DNA of 64,000 nt from Escherichia coli (lineage in GTDB: Bacteria; Pseudomonadota; Gammaproteobacteria; Enterobacterales; Enterobacteriaceae): NCBI RefSeq assembly GCF_030013595.1, contig NZ_CP122768.1. One strand, written 5' to 3'. The position numbers and the translations under genes are program-made. A model generated the notes under the pieces. It was not told the DNA's origin and made no database searches. It saw only the letters and a list, made by a program, of their open reading frames with translations. This document shows positions 33,703 through 43,527 of the stretch, one piece after another. Numbering within the stretch: the stretch's first letter is position 1; each line of letters starts with the position of its first letter.

Positions 33703-34275
33703 ATGCGTGGATTACGTCCGGCATTATCGACATTTATCTTTCTGTTATTGATTACTGGCGGCGTTTACCCCCTGCTAACCACCGCGCTGGGGCAATGGTG
33801 GTTTCCCTGGCAGGCCAACGGTTCGTTGATTCGTGAAGGTGATACGGTGCGCGGTTCGGCATTAATTGGGCAGAATTTTACCGGCAACGGCTATTTTCAT
33901 GGTCGCCCGTCGGCAACGGCAGAAATGCCCTATAATCCACAGGCTTCTGGCGGGAGCAATTTGGCGGTCAGTAACCCTGAGCTGGATAAACTAATAGCCG
34001 CACGCGTTGCTGCATTACGGGCCGCTAACCCGGATGCCAGCGCGAGCGTTCCGGTTGAACTGGTGACGGCATCGGCAAGCGGGCTGGACAATAACATCAC
34101 CCCGCAAGCGGCAGCCTGGCAGATCCCACGCGTGGCGAAAGCGCGTAATCTCAGCGTTGAACAGCTCACGCAACTGATCGCAAAATACAGCCAACAACCG
34201 CTGGTGAAATATATCGGCCAGCCGGTCGTCAACATTGTCGAACTCAATCTGGCGCTGGATAAGCTTGATGAATAA
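33703..34275 (+). CDS. kdpC: K+-transporting ATPase subunit C
   Basis: Within ORF 33679..34275; start at [16 protein letters not shown] (ATG 33703), 190 aa. Confidence 0.93.
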
Positions 34276-36952
34276 CGAACCCTTACGTCCCGACCCCGAT
34301 CGTCTGCTGGAACAAACTGCCGCGCCGCATCGGGGGAAGCTGAAAGTTTTCTTCGGTGCCTGCGCAGGCGTCGGGAAGACCTGGGCGATGCTGGCAGAAG
34401 CCCAGCGACTGCGGGCGCAAGGGCTGGATATTGTGGTTGGCGTGGTAGAAACCCACGGGCGGAAAGATACCGCCGCAATGCTGGAAGGGCTGGCTGTTCT
34501 GCCGTTAAAACGCCAGGCGTACCGTGGGCGGCACATCAGCGAGTTTGATCTCGATGCCGCCCTCGCCCGCCGTCCGGCACTGATCTTAATGGACGAACTG
34601 GCGCACAGTAATGCGCCAGGTTCTCGTCATCCTAAACGCTGGCAGGACATCGAAGAGCTGCTGGAAGCTGGCATTGATGTTTTCACAACCGTCAACGTTC
34701 AGCATCTGGAAAGTCTGAATGATGTGGTCAGCGGCGTCACCGGAATTCAGGTACGGGAAACCGTGCCCGATCCTTTTTTCGATGCCGCCGACGACGTGGT
34801 GCTGGTGGACTTGCCCCCGGACGATCTGCGTCAACGGCTGAAAGAAGGTAAAGTCTATATTGCCGGGCAGGCGGAACGCGCCATTGAACATTTTTTTCGC
34901 AAAGGCAATCTGATCGCCCTGCGCGAACTGGCACTGCGCCGTACTGCCGATCGCGTAGATGAGCAAATGCGCGCCTGGCGGGGGCATCCTGGCGAAGAGA
35001 AAGTCTGGCACACGCGCGACGCGATCCTTTTATGCATCGGGCATAACACCGGCAGCGAAAAACTGGTCCGCGCGGCGGCGCGGCTGGCGTCACGGCTGGG
35101 TAGCGTCTGGCACGCGGTGTATGTTGAAACCCCTGCCCTGCATCGCTTACCAGAGAAAAAACGTCGGGCAATTCTCAGCGCCTTACGTCTGGCGCAGGAG
35201 CTGGGCGCAGAGACGGCAACACTTTCTGATCCAGCGGAAGAGAAAGCGATAGTGCGTTATGCCCGTGAACATAATCTCGGCAAGATTATTCTCGGTCGCC
35301 CAGCCTCGCGCCGCCGGTGGCGTCGGGAAACGTTTGCTGACCGACTGGCGCGCATCGCCCCCGATCTCGATCAGGTGCTGGTCGCGCTTGATGAACCACC
35401 CGCCCGCACGATAAACAACGCGCCGGATAGCCGCTCTTTTAAAGACAAGTGGCGGGTACAGATTCAGGGATGCGTGGTTGCCGCCGCGTTATGCGCCGTT
35501 ATCACCTTAATTGCCATGCAGTGGCTGATGGCGTTTGATGCCGCCAACCTGGTGATGCTGTACCTACTTGGCGTGGTGGTGGTGGCGCTATTTTATGGAC
35601 GCTGGCCTTCGGTGGTTGCTACCGTCATTAATGTGGTGAGTTTCGATCTCTTTTTTATCGCCCCACGCGGCACGCTCGCCGTCTCTGATGTGCAATATCT
35701 GCTGACCTTCGCGGTGATGTTAACCGTCGGGCTGGTGATCGGGAACCTTACTGCTGGCGTTCGTTATCAGGCGCGGGTAGCCCGTTACCGCGAGCAACGC
35801 ACACGGCACTTATATGAAATGTCGAAAGCTCTGGCGGTGGGCCGCAGTCCGCAGGACATCGCCGCCACCAGCGAACAATTTATTGCCTCCACGTTTCATG
35901 CCCGCAGTCAGGTGTTGTTGCCCGATGACAACGGTAAATTGCAGCCGTTAACACATCCGCAAGGAATGACGCCGTGGGACGATGCCATCGCGCAGTGGAG
36001 TTTTGATAAAGGCCTGCCTGCGGGCGCGGGCACCGACACGTTACCCGGTGTACCGTACCAGATTTTGCCGCTAAAAAGCGGCGAGAAAACCTACGGGCTG
36101 GTGGTGGTGGAACCGGGGAATCTGCGCCAGTTGATGATCCCGGAACAGCAACGCCTGCTGGAGACGTTTACGCTGTTAGTCGCCAATGCCCTTGAGCGGC
36201 TGACACTGACCGCCAGCGAAGAACAGGCGCGGATGGCAAGCGAACGAGAACAGATCCGCAACGCCCTGCTGGCGGCGCTTTCGCATGATTTACGCACGCC
36301 GCTTACGGTGCTGTTCGGTCAGGCAGAAATCTTAACGCTCGATCTGGCGAGCGAAGGATCGCCCCACGCCCGCCAGGCCAGCGAGATTCGTCAGCATGTG
36401 CTGAACACGACCCGACTGGTGAATAATCTACTGGATATGGCGCGAATTCAGTCCGGCGGCTTTAATTTGAAGAAAGAGTGGTTAACGCTGGAAGAAGTGG
36501 TCGGCAGCGCGCTGCAAATGCTGGAACCGGGTTTATCGTCGCCCATCAATCTTTCTCTGCCAGAACCGCTGACCTTAATCCACGTTGACGGGCCACTCTT
36601 TGAACGGGTGCTGATTAATCTGCTGGAGAACGCGGTGAAATACGCGGGGGCGCAGGCCGAAATTGGTATCGATGCCCACGTTGAGGGCGAGAAGCTACAA
36701 CTGGATGTCTGGGATAACGGCCCCGGTCTTCCGCCAGGCCAGGAGCAGACGATATTTGATAAGTTTGCTCGCGGGAATAAAGAGTCGGCGATACCGGGTG
36801 TCGGGCTTGGGCTGGCAATTTGTCGGGCGATTGTGGATGTACACGGCGGCACCATTACCGCGTTCAACCGACCGGAAGGTGGTGCCTGTTTTCGTGTTAC
36901 ACTTCCCCAGCAAACTGCCCCTGAACTTGAAGAATTTCATGAGGATATGTGA
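34268..36952 (+). CDS. kdpD: sensor histidine kinase KdpD
   Basis: Within ORF 34235..36952; start at [14 protein letters not shown] (ATG 34268), 894 aa; H-box SHDLRTPL and ATPase motifs. Confidence 0.95.
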
Positions 36953-37626
36953 CAAACGTTCTGATTGTTGAAGATGAACAGGCTATTCGTCGCTTTCTGC
37001 GCACGGCGCTGGAGGGCGACGGTATGCGCGTCTTTGAGGCCGAAACGCTGCAACGCGGCTTGCTGGAAGCGGCAACCCGTAAGCCAGATTTGATTATTCT
37101 CGATCTCGGCCTGCCCGATGGTGATGGGATTGAGTTTATCCGCGACCTGCGCCAGTGGAGCGCGGTGCCGGTGATTGTGCTTTCCGCACGTAGCGAAGAG
37201 AGCGACAAAATCGCCGCGCTGGATGCCGGAGCGGATGATTATCTGAGTAAGCCGTTTGGCATTGGCGAATTGCAGGCCCGTCTGCGCGTCGCATTACGCC
37301 GCCACTCTGCCACCACCACGCCCGATCCGCTGGTGAAATTTTCCAATGTTACCGTCGATTTAGCGGCTCGAGTGATCCATCGCGGTGAGGAAGAGGTGCA
37401 TCTCACCCCGATTGAGTTCCGCCTGCTGGCGGTGTTGCTTAATAATGCGGGAAAAGTGCTCACCCAGCGCCAGCTCCTTAACCAGGTGTGGGGGCCAAAC
37501 GCGGTCGAACACAGTCATTATTTGCGTATTTATATGGGGCATCTGCGACAAAAACTGGAACAGGATCCCGCCCGCCCACGCCATTTCATTACTGAAACCG
37601 GTATTGGGTATCGGTTTATGCTTTGA
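36949..37626 (+). CDS. kdpE: response regulator KdpE (OmpR family)
   Basis: ORF track 225 aa [17 protein letters not shown]...; GTG start overlapping kdpD stop. Confidence 0.95.
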   Translation: MTNVLIVEDEQAIRRFLRTALEGDGMRVFEAETLQRGLLEAATRKPDLIILDLGLPDGDGIEFIRDLRQWSAVPVIVLSARSEESDKIAALDAGADDYLSKPFGIGELQARLRVALRRHSATTTPDPLVKFSNVTVDLAARVIHRGEEEVHLTPIEFRLLAVLLNNAGKVLTQRQLLNQVWGPNAVEHSHYLRIYMGHLRQKLEQDPARPRHFITETGIGYRFML

Positions 37627-37900
37627 ATTGTTATTCAATAAATTCGCTTTAATAGTGATTAATTTATTATTAAACCTGCTCCAAATATTATTATTTGGCA
37701 GGTTTAATTTCTTAACGCAAATATAAAACACGAAATTACAACATTTAAGTAACAAAACAGCATCTAATATGGCAATATTCATAATTAATGATTTATTATC
37801 TGGGGTATGATCGTTTTTTGTTGATCTTCTTCACAGATTATAGCCATTTCATGGATAGAATAACTCTACCTTCAACTGACACAGCAAGAGGTAAAGGTAA

Positions 37901-38005
37901 ATGGAAAATAATAACCGCTTAATGCCTCATATAAGGCGGACAACCCATATCATGAAGTTTGCCCATCGTAATAGTTTTGACTTTCATTTCTTTAATGCCC
38001 GCTAG
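37901..38005 (+). CDS. speFL: speF leader peptide (ornithine-sensing arrest peptide)
   Basis: Hand-translated 34-codon ORF MENNNRLMPHIRRTTHIMKFAHRNSFDFHFFNAR, about 310 bp upstream of speF; below the 60-aa ORF-track cut-off. Confidence 0.75.
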   Translation: MENNNRLMPHIRRTTHIMKFAHRNSFDFHFFNAR

Positions 38006-38315
38006 TCTTCTGACTAAAGGGCACCCCAACGTACAGGTCTCCCTGACTTTAAGCATTACAGGTTAATACCTGTATCCCTCGGTGCTCATATACTGCTAAC
38101 CCTTTTAAACTCTAAATAATTCGAGTCGCAGCACTTGCAACTTGAGGTATGACGAGTATAGCCAGTTACCGGGCTGGTCTGGGTTATTGCATCTACAAAA
38201 AGCAAACTACTGATTTATTTATCAGCGGTGGGGTTTTGCTTTTTTTCCGGCGTGATCGATTTCTCCTTTGAGAAATTGAGGACCTGCTATTACCTGAAAT
38301 AAAGAGATGAACAAA

Positions 38316-40514
38316 ATGTCAGAATTAAAAATTGCCGTTAGTCGTTCTTGCCCGGATTGTTTTTCAACTCATCGCACATGCGTGAATATTGACGAAAGTA
38401 ATTATATTGACGTTGCCGCCATTATTTTATCGGTCAATGATGTGGAACGTGGAAAACTCGATGAAATAGACGCTACTGGCTATGGCATTCCTGTTTTTAT
38501 TGCAACGGAAAATGAAGAACGTGTACCCGCAGAATATCTGCCACGTATTTCTGGTGTCTTCGAACATTGCGAATCACGTAAAGAGTTTTATGGACGTCAG
38601 TTAGAAACCGCTGCAAGCCATTATGAAACGCAACTGCGCCCGCCCTTCTTCCGCGCACTGGTCGATTATGTTAATCAGGGCAATAGTGCTTTTGACTGCC
38701 CTGGTCATCAGGGGGGTGAGTTTTTCCGTCGCCATCCGGCAGGCAATCAGTTCGTGGAATACTTTGGTGAGGCGCTGTTCCGTGCTGACTTGTGCAACGC
38801 CGACGTAGCGATGGGCGATCTGCTGATTCACGAAGGCGCGCCATGCATTGCACAGCAACATGCGGCTAAAGTCTTTAATGCCGATAAAACCTATTTCGTT
38901 TTAAACGGTACTTCATCTTCTAATAAAGTGGTCTTAAACGCATTGCTGACGCCGGGCGATCTGGTGTTGTTTGACCGCAATAACCATAAATCTAACCACC
39001 ACGGTGCGTTGCTACAGGCTGGCGCGACACCGGTTTATCTGGAAACCGCACGTAACCCGTATGGTTTTATCGGTGGTATTGACGCTCACTGTTTTGAAGA
39101 AAGTTACCTGCGTGAGCTGATTATAGAAGTTGCACCGCAGCGGGCAAAAGAGGCTCGTCCTTTCCGCCTCGCCGTTATTCAGCTAGGCACTTACGACGGT
39201 ACGATTTATAACGCCCGTCAGGTGGTGGATAAAATTGGTCATCTGTGTGACTACATCCTCTTTGACTCCGCATGGGTCGGCTATGAGCAGTTTATCCCGA
39301 TGATGGCGGACTGTTCACCACTGTTGCTGGATCTTAATGAGAACGATCCGGGTATTCTGGTTACGCAATCCGTACATAAACAGCAGGCTGGTTTTTCTCA
39401 AACTTCACAAATCCATAAAAAAGACAACCACATCAAAGGGCAACAGCGTTATGTACCGCACAAACGCATGAACAACGCCTTTATGATGCACGCCTCCACC
39501 AGCCCGTTCTATCCGCTGTTTGCCGCACTGGATATCAACGCCAAAATGCATGAAGGTGTCAGCGGTCGTAATATGTGGATGGATTGTGTGGTAAATGGCA
39601 TTAATGCCCGCAAACTGATCCTCGATAACTGTCAGCATATTCGTCCGTTCGTACCTGAACTGGTGGATGGTAAACCCTGGCAGTCGTATGAAACAGCGCA
39701 AATTGCGGTTGATCTGCGCTTCTTCCAGTTTGTACCAGGGGAACACTGGCATTCTTTTGAAGGCTATGCAGAGAATCAATACTTTGTTGATCCGTGCAAA
39801 CTGTTGCTGACAACCCCAGGTATTGATGCACGTAACGGCGAATATGAAGCGTTCGGTGTACCCGCGACGATTCTTGCTAATTTCCTGCGCGAAAATGGCG
39901 TAGTGCCGGAAAAATGCGATCTTAACTCCATCCTCTTCCTGCTGACTCCAGCAGAAGATATGGCCAAACTTCAGCAACTTGTTGCCCTGCTGGTACGCTT
40001 CGAAAAACTGCTGGAATCTGATGCGCCGCTGGCGGAAGTGCTACCTTCCATCTACAAACAGCATGAAGAGCGCTACGCCGGTTATACGCTTCGTCAGTTG
40101 TGCCAGGAAATGCATGATTTGTATGCCCGCCACAACGTGAAACAACTGCAAAAAGAGATGTTCCGTAAGGAACACTTCCCACGCGTCAGCATGAATCCGC
40201 AAGAAGCTAACTACGCCTATTTACGCGGTGAAGTGGAGCTGGTTCGTCTGCCGGATGCAGAAGGCCGTATCGCTGCCGAAGGTGCGCTTCCTTATCCTCC
40301 GGGTGTGCTGTGTGTTGTTCCGGGTGAAATCTGGGGTGGTGCTGTTTTGCGTTACTTCAGCGCTCTGGAAGAAGGGATCAACCTGCTGCCAGGTTTTGCA
40401 CCGGAGCTGCAGGGTGTCTATATCGAAGAACATGATGGTCGTAAGCAAGTTTGGTGCTATGTCATCAAGCCTCGTGATGCGCAAAGCACCCTGTTGAAAG
40501 GGGAAAAATTATGA
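38316..40514 (+). CDS. speF: inducible ornithine decarboxylase
   Basis: Within ORF 38307..40514; start taken at MSELKIAVS (ATG 38316), 732 aa. Confidence 0.95.
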   Translation: MSELKIAVSRSCPDCFSTHRTCVNIDESNYIDVAAIILSVNDVERGKLDEIDATGYGIPVFIATENEERVPAEYLPRISGVFEHCESRKEFYGRQLETAASHYETQLRPPFFRALVDYVNQGNSAFDCPGHQGGEFFRRHPAGNQFVEYFGEALFRADLCNADVAMGDLLIHEGAPCIAQQHAAKVFNADKTYFVLNGTSSSNKVVLNALLTPGDLVLFDRNNHKSNHHGALLQAGATPVYLETARNPYGFIGGIDAHCFEESYLRELIIEVAPQRAKEARPFRLAVIQLGTYDGTIYNARQVVDKIGHLCDYILFDSAWVGYEQFIPMMADCSPLLLDLNENDPGILVTQSVHKQQAGFSQTSQIHKKDNHIKGQQRYVPHKRMNNAFMMHASTSPFYPLFAALDINAKMHEGVSGRNMWMDCVVNGINARKLILDNCQHIRPFVPELVDGKPWQSYETAQIAVDLRFFQFVPGEHWHSFEGYAENQYFVDPCKLLLTTPGIDARNGEYEAFGVPATILANFLRENGVVPEKCDLNSILFLLTPAEDMAKLQQLVALLVRFEKLLESDAPLAEVLPSIYKQHEERYAGYTLRQLCQEMHDLYARHNVKQLQKEMFRKEHFPRVSMNPQEANYAYLRGEVELVRLPDAEGRIAAEGALPYPPGVLCVVPGEIWGGAVLRYFSALEEGINLLPGFAPELQGVYIEEHDGRKQVWCYVIKPRDAQSTLLKGEKL

Positions 40515-41830
40515 GTCAGGCTAAATCGAACAAAATGGGCGTCGTTCAGTTAACCATACTGACGATGGTCAACATGATGGGCTCCGGTATCATCATGCTG
40601 CCGACAAAGCTTGCCGAAGTTGGGACAATTTCAATTATCTCCTGGCTGGTGACAGCCGTAGGCTCAATGGCACTGGCATGGGCATTCGCAAAATGCGGTA
40701 TGTTCAGCCGTAAATCAGGCGGTATGGGCGGTTATGCGGAGTATGCTTTCGGTAAATCCGGGAACTTTATGGCGAACTATACCTACGGCGTCTCACTGCT
40801 AATTGCTAACGTCGCGATTGCTATTTCGGCGGTTGGTTACGGCACCGAACTGCTCGGCGCGAGTTTGTCGCCAGTGCAGATTGGTCTTGCGACCATCGGG
40901 GTGCTGTGGATTTGTACCGTGGCTAACTTTGGTGGTGCGCGCATTACCGGGCAAATCAGTAGCATTACCGTGTGGGGGGTCATTATTCCGGTGGTAGGCC
41001 TGTGCGTTATCGGCTGGTTCTGGTTTAGCCCGACGCTTTACGTTGATTCCTGGAATCCGCATCATGCACCGTTCTTCAGTGCGGTAGGTTCTTCCATCGC
41101 TATGACGCTGTGGGCTTTTCTTGGTCTGGAGTCTGCGTGTGCGAATACTGATGTAGTGGAAAACCCGGAACGTAATGTGCCAATCGCGGTACTCGGCGGT
41201 ACGTTAGGTGCGGCGGTGATTTATATCGTCTCCACCAACGTGATTGCAGGGATTGTGCCTAATATGGAGCTGGCAAATTCAACGGCACCATTTGGCCTGG
41301 CCTTCGCACAGATGTTCACGCCAGAAGTGGGTAAAGTCATTATGGCGCTGATGGTGATGTCCTGCTGCGGTTCGCTGCTTGGCTGGCAGTTCACCATTGC
41401 CCAGGTGTTTAAATCTTCATCTGATGAAGGCTACTTCCCTAAAATTTTCTCCCGTGTAACCAAAGTGGATGCACCGGTGCAGGGAATGTTGACCATTGTG
41501 ATTATCCAGAGCGGGTTGGCGCTGATGACGATTAGCCCGTCGCTAAACAGTCAGTTCAACGTGCTGGTTAACCTGGCCGTGGTGACCAATATCATTCCGT
41601 ATATTCTGTCAATGGCGGCATTAGTCATTATTCAGAAGGTCGCTAATGTGCCCCCCTCAAAAGCGAAAGTTGCAAACTTTGTTGCTTTTGTTGGCGCGAT
41701 GTACAGCTTTTATGCGCTGTACTCATCCGGGGAAGAAGCCATGCTATACGGTTCCATCGTGACCTTCCTCGGTTGGACACTGTATGGTCTGGTCTCACCA
41801 CGCTTTGAACTGAAAAATAAACACGGTTAA
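40511..41830 (+). CDS. potE: putrescine-ornithine antiporter
   Basis: ORF track 439 aa MSQAKSNKMGVVQLTILTMVNMMGSGIIML...; ATGA overlap with speF stop. Confidence 0.97.
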   Translation: MSQAKSNKMGVVQLTILTMVNMMGSGIIMLPTKLAEVGTISIISWLVTAVGSMALAWAFAKCGMFSRKSGGMGGYAEYAFGKSGNFMANYTYGVSLLIANVAIAISAVGYGTELLGASLSPVQIGLATIGVLWICTVANFGGARITGQISSITVWGVIIPVVGLCVIGWFWFSPTLYVDSWNPHHAPFFSAVGSSIAMTLWAFLGLESACANTDVVENPERNVPIAVLGGTLGAAVIYIVSTNVIAGIVPNMELANSTAPFGLAFAQMFTPEVGKVIMALMVMSCCGSLLGWQFTIAQVFKSSSDEGYFPKIFSRVTKVDAPVQGMLTIVIIQSGLALMTISPSLNSQFNVLVNLAVVTNIIPYILSMAALVIIQKVANVPPSKAKVANFVAFVGAMYSFYALYSSGEEAMLYGSIVTFLGWTLYGLVSPRFELKNKHG

Positions 41831-41842
41831 TTAAGCAAAGCA

Positions 41843-41874
41843 AAAAAGGGCGATCTTCCGACCGCCCTTTTTCT
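41843..41874. terminator. bidirectional rho-independent terminator between potE and pgm
   Basis: AAAAAAGGGCG ... CGCCCTTTTTCTT hairpin flanked by A-run and T-run in the 56-bp convergent gap. Confidence 0.65.
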
Positions 41875-41886
41875 TATTTAATGTGT

Positions 41887-43527
41887 TTACGCGTTTTTCA
41901 GAACTTCGCTAACAATCTCAACCGCTTCTTTCTCGATCTGCTTGCGATGCTCTTCACCGAGGAAGCTTTCGCAATAAATCTTGTACGCGTCTTCCGTGCC
42001 TGACGGACGCGCGGCGAACCAGCCGTTGTCAGTCATCACTTTCAGACCGCCAATAGAAGCACCGTTGCCCGGAGCAGCAGTCAGGCGTGCGGTGATCGGG
42101 TCACCTGCCAGGGTGCTGGCGCTCACCATTTCCGGAGACAGCTTAGACAGCGCCGCTTTTTGTGCGGAAGTCGCAGCTGCCTGCAAACGGTTGTAGCTCG
42201 GCGCACCAAAGCGTTTTGCCAGTTCGTTGTAGTGTTCCTGCGGGTTCTTACCGGTGACCGCGGTGATTTCTGCCGCCAGCAGACACATAATGATACCGTC
42301 TTTATCGGTTGACCACGGCGTGCCGTCGAAACGCAGGAAGGAAGCCCCTGCGCTCTCTTCGCCGCCAAAGCCGAAGCTGCCGTCGAACAGACCATCAACA
42401 AACCATTTGAAACCTACCGGGACTTCTACCAGCTTACGGCCCAAGTCATTGACCACACGGTCGATCATCGCAGATGAAACCAGCGTTTTACCGACAGCAA
42501 CATCTTTGCCCCACTGCGGACGATGCTGGAACAGGTAGTTGATCGCCACCGCCAGGTAGTGGTTCGGATTCATCAAACCTGCCGGAGTGACGATACCGTG
42601 ACGGTCATAATCCGGGTCGTTAGCAAACGCCAGATCGAACTTATCACGCAGTGCCAGCAGACCCGCCATCGCACACTCGGAGGAGCAGTCCATACGGATC
42701 GCACCGTCTTTATCGAGGTGCATAAAGCGGAAGGTTTGATCGACCTGATCGTTAACGATGGTCAGGTTGAGGTTGTAATACTCGCCAATGCGCTTCCAGT
42801 ATTCGATACCGGAACCACCCAGCGGATCAACGCCCAGCGTCAGGCCCGCTTTCTGAATCGCCGCCATATCAACGATATCGGCCAGCCCTTCCACAAACGG
42901 CTGCACCAGATCCTGCTCTTTCACATGACCGGATGCCATCGCTTCGTCGAGGGAGATACGCTTCACGCCTTTCAGGCCATCAGCCAGCAGTGCGTTGGCT
43001 CTGTCTTCCACCACTTTAGTGACGTTGGTATCAGCCGGGCCACCATTTGGCGGATTGTACTTGATACCACCATCTTCCGGCGGGTTATGGGACGGTGTAA
43101 TCACGATACCGTCTGCCAGCGGGCCACCTTTTTTATTGTGAACCAGGATGGCATTGGAAACGGCAGGCGTCGGAGTGAAGCCATTGTTTTCCTGCACAAT
43201 AACATCTACGCCGTTCGCTGCCAGCACTTCCAGTACGGAAATGAACGCAGGCTCGGACAGGGCGTGAGTATCTTTACCCACATAGCAAGGGCCAGTGATG
43301 CCGTTTTTCGCACGTTCTTCAGCAATTGCCTGAGCGATCGCCAGAATGTGCGGCTCGTTAAAGCTGTGGCGCGCTGCACTGCCACGGTGACCGGAAGTAC
43401 CGAATTTCACCGCGTGCTCCGCATTCCCTGCTTCTGGTTTCAGTACATAATATTGCGCCGTCAGTTGGGCGACGTTAATCAAATCACTCTGTTGTGCAGG
43501 TTGGCCTGCACGATTGTGGATTGCCAT
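41887..43527 (-). CDS. pgm: phosphoglucomutase
   Basis: Within ORF 41887..43578; start at [16 protein letters not shown] (ATG 43525-43527), 546 aa; TSGHRG phosphoserine-loop-like motif present. Confidence 0.95.

Follow-up and report, generated by a model that had tools for sequence, protein, structure and literature searches.

Organization of the locus and the DNA upstream of speFL

The locus described here lies in a window of 64,000 nucleotides of Escherichia coli DNA (the whole stretch analyzed, from contig NZ_CP122768.1) and consists of the 3' end of the kdp operon, the leader reading frame speFL, and the speF-potE operon. The coordinates of these genes, of the leader elements, and of one short repeat are collected in Table 1. 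Several complete E. coli genomes match the stretch 37627 to 38320 (694 nt) at 100% identity, and on this identical DNA RefSeq carries the label 'speFL: leader peptide SpeFL' (WP_001312672.1). The kdpE gene is context only and lies outside the speF control element. The raw speF open reading frame (ORF) begins at an in-frame ATG at 38307, nine nucleotides ahead of the RefSeq start, and in other species the equivalent ATG is out of frame with speF.

Table 1. Genes and leader elements of the kdpE-speFL-speF-potE locus, with positions in the window
Feature	Position	Strand	Basis or remark
kdpD	34235-36952		NCBIfam and RefSeq
kdpE, last gene of the upstream kdp operon	36949..37626	+	NCBIfam NF007820, E = 8.9e-147; RefSeq in identical DNA
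Terminator-like hairpin 3' of kdpE, then AAUUUCUU (U-rich run)	37669..37708	+	RNA fold
Conserved block, putative promoter of speFL-speF-potE	37809..37869	+	75-sequence alignment, columns conserved at 90% or more
Shine-Dalgarno region of speFL (AAGAGGUAAAGG)	37886..37897	+	Sequence; purine-rich in every aligned species
speFL	37901..38005	+	34 codons and UAG; product, ornithine-sensing ribosome-arrest leader peptide
HIRRTTH ornithine-recognition motif (HIRRXXH), codons 10-16	37928..37948	+	Sequence; bioRxiv 10.1101/604074
Rare arginine codons AGG CGG (codons 12-13)	37934..37939	+	Sequence; K-12 codons identical
Effector domain, codons 14-34	37940..38002	+	F20, F26, F28, F30, F31 and N32 all present
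C-rich, G-poor zone, candidate rut region	37945..38124	+	Sliding composition, C/G ratio 1.4-2.7
Predicted long-range helix, 5' strand (speFL codons 24-32)	37972..37994	+	MFE fold; partner is the speF ribosome-binding site
Hairpin enclosing the speFL stop codon (published pause hairpin)	37996..38023	+	MFE fold; conservation
Downstream hairpin, equivalent to Salmonella 'DS'	38031..38047	+	Fold; role from PMC6386406
Conserved hairpin	38052..38086, loop 38064..38067	+	Fold and alignment
Short, internally deleted ERIC/IRU repeat in the speFL-speF spacer	38103..38160	+	58 nt; absent from K-12
Predicted long-range helix, 3' strand	38300..38327	+	Covers speF Shine-Dalgarno AAAGAG (38301..38306) and start codon (38316..38318)
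speF, inducible ornithine decarboxylase, regulated gene	38316..40514	+	TIGR04301 ODC_inducible, 1433 bits (cut-off 1310)
potE, putrescine-ornithine antiporter, second regulated gene	40511..41830	+	NF007938 and TIGR04299, E ~1e-256; RefSeq
pgm	after potE	opposite to speF-potE	

The stretch between kdpE and speFL (37627..37900) had been put forward in the initial annotation as a 275-bp AT-rich, unannotated control region. Its AT-richness holds (GC content of 27.7% vs 52.1% for the whole window) and its length is 274 nt, not 275; a role in control fits the proximal ~90 bp and not the distal ~180 bp, which are made up of a kdp terminator-like hairpin and a non-aligning spacer. This hairpin, at the place where the kdp operon terminator is expected, has a predicted fold of -17.3 kcal/mol (z = -5.8; none of 200 shuffles folded as well), and alignment places a hairpin of different sequence at the equivalent K-12 site. 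Its stem is bulged, and a simple terminator scan left it uncalled. From 37709 to 37808 there is no alignment between the two E. coli haplotypes.

The proximal ~90 bp, on the other hand, are conserved across genera and contain the promoter block, a putative transcription start, and the Shine-Dalgarno region. An alignment of 75 sequences covering the 140 nt upstream of speFL delimited the promoter block, in which we found the motif TGATC-N4-TCAC at 37822..37834 and a -10-like TAGAAT at 37856..37861. Primer extension in Salmonella, placing the AUG of orf34 at +32 (PMC6386406), would put the transcription start at about 37868..37870, for which the TAGAAT is correctly spaced. Since a promoter scan returned no canonical sigma-70 promoter (-35/-10 pair) on the + strand, we infer the promoter assignment.

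The same stretch proved not to be unannotated, as PGAP places a 44-aa 'hypothetical protein' at 37788..37922. RefSeq annotates it as WP_001299172.1 and its translation resembles an in-frame upstream extension in Citrobacter, yet it is very unlikely to be a second real small gene: its start lies ~80 nt before the putative transcription start, the similarity is that of conserved promoter DNA translated as protein, and the frame is unconserved, as it is joined to speFL in some Citrobacter but shifted in the present sequence and unannotated in K-12. With zero Pfam matches in addition, we judged this ORF to be spurious.

Identity and conservation of the speFL reading frame

The reading frame of speFL is uninterrupted from 37901 to 38005 on the + strand, encoding MENNNRLMPHIRRTTHIMKFAHRNSFDFHFFNAR in 34 codons followed by UAG, and translation revealed neither a frameshift nor an internal stop. 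This bears out the initial annotation, which had reported an ORF of this length about 310 bp before speF: the spacer from the end of the stop codon at 38005 to the RefSeq-annotated speF ATG at 38316 is 310 nt. It had also been described as a known element invisible at a 60-aa cut-off, and an ORF scan at a threshold of 20 aa indeed recovers it as a 34-aa, ATG-initiated frame. At this threshold, however, 141 ORFs overlap the surrounding 10 kb, so that ORF length alone is no evidence and the case is made by homology and selection.

The SpeFL chain of PDB 6TBV/6TC3 matches the peptide end to end (E = 1.7e-18), with 32 of 34 residues identical and S5N and T7L as the sole differences. Pfam family PF10940 (Leader peptide SpeFL) is matched with 27.9 bits against a cut-off of 25, while zero models in the NCBIfam library match the 34-aa peptide. 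The PDB chain, Pfam, and the RefSeq annotation of identical DNA all agree with the earlier proposal that the frame encodes the ornithine-sensing SpeFL arrest peptide.

The motifs on which arrest depends are also intact. In the characterized peptide, residues 1-13 form a sensor domain with Pro9, and the HIRRXXH motif occupies residues 10-16, while residues 14-34 form an effector domain with a phenylalanine core (F20/F26/F28/F30/F31) plus N32 (bioRxiv 10.1101/604074). Arrest in response to ornithine is lost or severely weakened when H10, I11, R12, R13, H16, F26, F28, F30 or F31 is mutated (bioRxiv 10.1101/604074). All nine of these residues, as well as P9, are present in the peptide encoded here, and the C-terminal arrest motif, the loss of which had been named as grounds for rejecting the assignment, reads FDFHFFNAR and is conserved across Enterobacterales.

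To place the peptide among its relatives, 80 loci on one-genome-per-species contigs were fetched with SpeF residues 1-300 as query, and an upstream ORF (uORF) was sought in each. A uORF of 34-35 codons precedes speF in 74 of the 80 Enterobacterales loci, at distances of 197 to 498 nt, and follows the pattern MENNN(R/K)xMPHIRRxTH...F(D/S/N)F..FN.. throughout. Among the 80 loci, one in Yersinia has a degenerate uORF, and in four kdpE-adjacent decarboxylase loci without potE the uORF is also absent. The S5N and T7L differences fall at two of the most variable positions, where N5 occurs in 83% of sequences and leucine is the commonest residue at position 7; they accordingly bring the window peptide nearer to the family consensus than the K-12 peptide.

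A chance untranslated frame in AT-rich intergenic DNA would be the simplest alternative, given the AT-richness of the region and the abundance of short ORFs noted above. The conservation pattern nonetheless already refutes it, and we consider its probability negligible. Beyond its near-identity to an experimentally characterized peptide and its fixed place before speF in the loci surveyed, the frame differs between the K-12 and window alleles in 13 codons, 11 of them synonymously and only two non-synonymously. Across 70 distinct speFL DNA sequences, twelve residues (E2, N3, N4, H10, I11, R12, R13, H16, M18, R23, F26, and F28) are invariant despite synonymous variation in their codons. Purifying selection evidently acts on the SpeFL peptide.

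The frame thus shares with the SpeFL/PF10940 family sequence similarity, the position of a uORF before speF-potE, the sensor, the effector with FNAR, the rare arginine codons, purifying selection, and the hairpin at the stop codon. What is observed directly at this locus is that the sequence matches, the motifs are intact, the peptide is under selection, synteny is kept, and the stop-codon hairpin is conserved, and we are highly confident that 37901..38005 is a working SpeFL, a leader ORF that acts in cis on the speF-potE operon. Descriptions of SpeFL/orf34 date from 2019-2020, its structures are solved, it has a Pfam family, and RefSeq annotates it routinely, so there is nothing new in finding SpeFL itself; the element is already known and is ordinary apart from the small repeat inserted in the leader RNA of this strain. 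The practical value lies in the fact that a reading of sequence alone recovered a genuine regulatory ORF of 34 codons, which a cut-off of 60 aa had hidden.

Leader RNA structure, the ERIC repeat, and the haplotype split

The C-rich, G-poor zone covers the 3' half of speFL and ~100 nt beyond it. Its base composition is compatible with a rut site, making it a candidate, and its position agrees with the published model, in which a predicted rut site overlaps speFL (bioRxiv 10.1101/604074). Two hairpins lie in close succession at and after the stop codon. RNAalifold recovered no more of the first than its outer stem, so that an explicit structure was counted instead: in 49 Enterobacteriaceae sequences, 83.8% of cells in the stop-codon and downstream hairpins are paired, compared with 20-45% in slid controls, a level reached by 0 of 500 shuffles. 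The third base of the Asn32 codon, a synonymous position, covaries with its hairpin partner (CG 21, UA 14, UG 13), and five of the six pairs of the downstream hairpin show changes on both sides.

The leader as a whole (37870..38340) is also predicted to fold stably (z = -3.9). In the minimum free energy (MFE) structure, 37972-37981 pairs with 38318-38327 and 37983-37994 with 38300-38311, which would sequester the speF ribosome-binding site (RBS) against speFL codons 24-32. The corresponding duplex has a predicted energy of -19.5 kcal/mol (z = -2.7). When the speFL 3' end was tested against the speF RBS in the 74 loci, z fell below -2 in 26, and significant pairing was confined to Enterobacteriaceae near E. 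coli, with none in distant genera. In Salmonella, an equivalent anti-RBS helix was demonstrated with disruptive and compensatory mutations (PMC6386406).

No Rfam family scored above its gathering score between 37000 and 39000. The one match there, to isrH at 38104-38160, reached 17.3 bits against a gathering score of 45; it coincides with the repeat described below and was rejected as a repeat-derived chance match.

In the spacer between speFL and speF, alignment to K-12 shows a 51-nt gap at the position of the repeat, and the spacer measures 310 nt here vs 257 nt in K-12. Sequences matching 38103-38160 occur in 5425 of 5426 E. coli genomes, at a median of 4 places per genome, and all copies examined are intergenic, including those in yafP-rtcB (91% identical to the window fragment), yehK-yehL, yaeH-cdaR, yeiS-preT, and dxs-yajO. 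The dxs-yajO copy is a full 127-bp ERIC bounded by these same ends, and comparison of this K-12 element with that of the window gives 96% identity over the left 23 nt and 92% over the right 39 nt. The centre of the dxs-yajO ERIC contains AAGTAAGTGACTGGGGTGAACG, with a single mismatch to the ERIC2 primer, a sequence found alongside the name ERIC2 in 149 papers. The window element is without the central ~70 nt that contain the ERIC1R/ERIC2 primer sites and is accordingly not a full 127-bp palindrome. Strain SCU-316 has the short copy and, in tandem behind it, a full ERIC that extends the spacer to 434 nt; this full copy contains ERIC2 with one mismatch and the exact reverse complement of what we take to be the ERIC1R primer.

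Because its ends match the full ERIC, the same ends flank a 127-bp copy, and a full copy adjoins it in SCU-316, we identify the window element, by sequence comparison, as an internally deleted short form of ERIC. Like the ERIC/IRU family in general, it has both ends of the 127-bp element, including the terminal inverted ends, lies in intergenic DNA in dispersed copies, is transcribed, and forms a hairpin, and it differs from the full form in the missing central ~70 nt. ERIC elements are transcribed palindromes that have been reported to influence mRNA stability. In the predicted fold, the fragment forms a self-contained hairpin and leaves the conserved helices intact.

Insertions in this leader are not restricted to the window haplotype. 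E. albertii and the divergent 'E. coli E69' carry a diverged insertion at the 38103-38160 site, whereas Citrobacter sp. On2M and C. amalonaticus have a full-length ERIC at a different one, the loop (38064..38067) of the conserved hairpin at 38052..38086. Two Kluyvera leaders also have a full-length ERIC match. The S. enterica arizonae spacer is ~378 nt and has a 124-nt insertion at this second site, in the loop of the hairpin equivalent to 38057-38074, with a marginal likeness to ERIC (z = 2.2, with 15 of 300 shuffles as good). The 'C. freundii M-21' locus carries a non-ERIC insertion. The Salmonella paper makes no mention of repeats (PMC6386406). A literature search for ERIC at speF/kdpE returned nothing relevant, the ERIC-polymorphism survey of E. 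coli (Wilson & Sharp 2006) lying outside the scope.

The repeat sits within a sharp split between E. coli haplotypes. Identity to K-12 is 96-99% over kdp, distal speF, and potE and falls to 72-88% within ~37500-38770 (~1.3 kb), where the control region and leader are ~73% identical and the promoter-distal upstream DNA is unalignable. Among 5426 complete E. coli genomes, ~3500 are of the window type (at least 80% identity) and ~1700 of the K-12 type (~73.5% identity). At least three natural versions of the E. coli leader exist, with spacers of 257 nt without a repeat (~1/3), 310 nt with the short ERIC (~2/3), and 434 nt with the short and full ERIC. At the beginning of speF (450 nt), the window allele and E. 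albertii share 89% identity, the same level as elsewhere in the locus, and the K-12 allele reaches only 81-83% identity with any Escherichia representative and 76-78% with Citrobacter and relatives; no closer donor for the K-12 allele was found among the 80 species. Because the K-12 allele is equally distant from all Escherichia while that of the window is close to E. albertii, it is the laboratory K-12 allele that looks like the outlier in these comparisons.

It may be asked whether this leader, though that of a true SpeFL, gives an output unlike that of K-12, its ERIC hairpin and diverged sequence altering mRNA stability, Rho access or RBS sequestration and with them induction or the basal level. 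The three spacer lengths, the low identity to K-12, and the reported influence of ERIC palindromes on mRNA stability would favour such an effect, as would the finding that deletions in the equivalent 5' UTR 'ring' of Salmonella changed mRNA decay (PMC6386406). We nevertheless consider a departure of this kind unlikely. The ERIC starts past most of the C-rich zone and folds independently; the stop-codon hairpin, the downstream hairpin, and the anti-RBS helix persist in the predicted fold; and both the sharing of this haplotype by ~2/3 of complete E. coli genomes and the E. albertii insertion at the same site are compatible with a working operon. A working SpeFL under the control described below remains the preferred reading. 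That ERIC content and the diverged leader tune the speF-potE basal level, mRNA half-life or ornithine inducibility among strains is a rather speculative suggestion; if true, the K-12 allele behind all mechanistic work would be unrepresentative of most strains. Most E. coli nonetheless carry a leader unlike that of K-12, with an ERIC in a regulatory RNA and a haplotype divergence of unusual depth that has its centre in the control region, and these natural variants could be used to test which parts of the leader govern Rho attenuation, RBS sequestration, and mRNA decay.

Proposed mechanism and comparison with known systems

Published experiments used the K-12 or Salmonella leader only (bioRxiv 10.1101/604074; PMC6386406), and it is from these that we infer stalling, Rho dependence, the promoter, and the transcription start of the present allele. 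In Salmonella, transcription has a single start 31 nt before the uORF AUG, and when the uORF is not translated Rho terminates just past the stop-codon-containing hairpin, an effect relieved by bicyclomycin (PMC6386406). In E. coli, ornithine brings about arrest at codons 33/34 with RF1 blocked, and the stalled and queued ribosomes mask the rut site overlapping speFL; the ornithine-dependent, puromycin-resistant arrest was demonstrated for the K-12 peptide (bioRxiv 10.1101/604074).

By analogy, transcription at this locus would begin ~31 nt before the speFL AUG, and a ribosome would read the 34 codons of speFL. Residues 1-13, with P9 and the HIRRTTH motif, would form, together with 23S rRNA, an exit-tunnel pocket in which a single L-ornithine is trapped, upon which residues 14-34 would compact around the phenylalanine core (F20/F26/F28/F30/F31) and block the action of the release factor at UAG. 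The arrested and queued ribosomes would then cover the C-rich rut region at the 3' end of speFL, preventing Rho termination, melt the stop-codon hairpin, and keep speFL codons 24-32 apart from the Shine-Dalgarno sequence and AUG of speF, the predicted outcome being transcription and translation of speF-potE. If ornithine is absent, the ribosome would be released and Rho would end transcription within the leader. At codons 12-13, the rare AGG CGG pair may slow trailing ribosomes, so that rut stays exposed in the uninduced state.

These arginine codons have also been given a more central role. In the Salmonella orf34 model, the main input is arginine supply, with pausing at Arg codons 12-13 selecting between leader folds and thereby controlling decay by RNase G, and this may operate here as an additional layer. 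The model has an experimental basis in Salmonella (PMC6386406), and several features of the present locus would fit it: the AGG CGG pair is there, neither R12 nor R13 ever varies, 54 of the 70 distinct speFL sequences use AGG at codon 12, and covariation accompanies the conservation of the downstream hairpin. However, R12 and R13 contact ornithine in the structure (bioRxiv 10.1101/604074), so their conservation is explained either way, and the 'ring' that mediates decay in Salmonella differs here in length and sequence. An arginine input is moreover compatible with ornithine sensing and excludes nothing of it. We therefore regard arginine supply as a possible but less probable main input, and ornithine sensing by SpeFL as the preferred one.

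Among known systems, the characterized counterpart is K-12 SpeFL (ybfK; PDB 6TBV/6TC3; Herrero del Valle et al., bioRxiv 10.1101/604074, later Nat Microbiol 2020). The two alleles have in common the 34 codons and UAG, the place before speF-potE, 32 of 34 residues (with HIRRTTH, P9, the phenylalanine core, N32, and the AGG CGG codons among the shared features), the stop-codon hairpin, and a leader 3' end arranged around the speF RBS. Unlike K-12, the present allele has S5N and T7L, 11 synonymous codon changes, and a spacer of 310 rather than 257 nt owing to the short ERIC insertion, and it lies in a segment (37500-38770) only 72-88% identical between flanks of 96-99%.

The orf34 of Salmonella Typhimurium (Ben-Zvi et al. 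2019, PMC6386406) belongs to the same peptide family, the S. enterica arizonae version reading MENNNRFMPHIRRTTHIMMFAHRNSFDFHFFNAR. It shares an AUG ~31 nt from the transcription start, as this is placed by analogy here, and two further features are likened to the arrangement proposed here: attenuation by Rho directly beyond the hairpin at the stop codon, and a long-range helix that joins the 3' end of the uORF to the speF RBS. The S. enterica arizonae locus differs in its spacer of ~378 nt, in having its insertion at a different site, and in M19 for K19.

A more distant parallel is TnaC of tnaCAB, which follows the same logic: a free amino acid is sensed in the exit tunnel, release at the stop codon is blocked, rut is masked, and Rho is prevented from acting (bioRxiv 10.1101/604074). 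TnaC is unrelated in sequence, its ligand is L-Trp and not L-Orn, and it uses a different site in the tunnel, making it an analogue of SpeFL and not a member of its family.

Divergence of the speFL–speF region within E. coli

The DNA spanning the kdpE 3′ end, the promoter, speFL, its leader and the first ~450 nt of speF forms a localized hyper-divergent block, in which identity to K-12 falls to 72%–88%, compared with 96%–99% in the flanks. Among complete E. coli genomes, about two thirds carry the block in the form found in the window and about one third carry the K-12 type, and it is the K-12 type that appears to be the outlier when set against E. albertii. No closer donor for the K-12-type block was found among the 80 species represented by one SpeF-bearing locus each.

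Features of the speFL–speF region and of related leaders
Feature	Location	Remarks
Hyper-divergent block	window ~37500..38770	
Strong hairpin	window 37669..37708	z = -5.8; 3′ of kdpE
44-aa hypothetical protein WP_001299172.1	window 37788..37922	RefSeq/PGAP; other frame, overlaps speFL start
ERIC/IRU repeat, internally deleted	window 38103..38160	58 nt; within speFL–speF leader RNA
Leaders with ERIC match	L013, L014, L026, L080	Citrobacter sp. On2M, C. amalonaticus, two Kluyvera

The hairpin downstream of kdpE is likely to be a terminator of the kdp operon; a hairpin of differing sequence occupies the equivalent position in K-12. Further along, WP_001299172.1 appears to be a translation of conserved promoter DNA and is probably not a genuine gene. 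At the speF start, a 2-nt insertion (AC) in window 38307..38318, relative to K-12 and other species, brings the ATG at 38307 into the speF reading frame, such that the raw speF ORF begins 9 nt ahead of the annotated, conserved start at 38316. Beyond potE, pgm follows directly in the window (41830..41887), whereas K-12 (L002 9968..11716) has ~1.7 kb of extra DNA between the two genes, comprising a lipoprotein gene together with two pseudogenes, one a winged-helix fragment and the other DUF2625.

Loci with absent or degenerate speFL

In Pseudocitrobacter, "Escherichia sp. ESNIH1" and a related MAG (L055, L056, L061 and L066), an ornithine-decarboxylase homologue adjoins kdpE without either potE or speFL, and the leader and antiporter appear to have been jointly lost, or never acquired. 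The Yersinia proxima locus (L064) has potE and, 5′ of speF, a degenerate SpeFL-like uORF, MKYQHKFCSHIQRVIHLVMLSQRSCFDFHLFYLRLFPSSIS, with Q in place of R12 and a longer C-terminus; this uORF is possibly a leader in decay or one put to a new use.

ERIC repeats in the leader RNA

With its short ERIC, the spacer between speFL and speF measures 310 nt in the window, versus 257 nt in K-12, where ERIC is absent; in strain SCU-316 (L088), a short ERIC followed in tandem by a full ERIC yields a 434-nt spacer. A weak Rfam isrH match (38104-38160) overlies the short repeat. Full ERIC matches are also present in the two Kluyvera leaders. In Citrobacter sp. On2M and C. amalonaticus, a full-length ERIC lies inside the loop of a conserved leader hairpin, at a second insertion site equivalent to window 38064..38067. 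Salmonella arizonae (L019) carries a 124-nt insertion at this hairpin-loop site that is only marginally ERIC-like. The site corresponds to the "ring-like" region of Salmonella leader studies.
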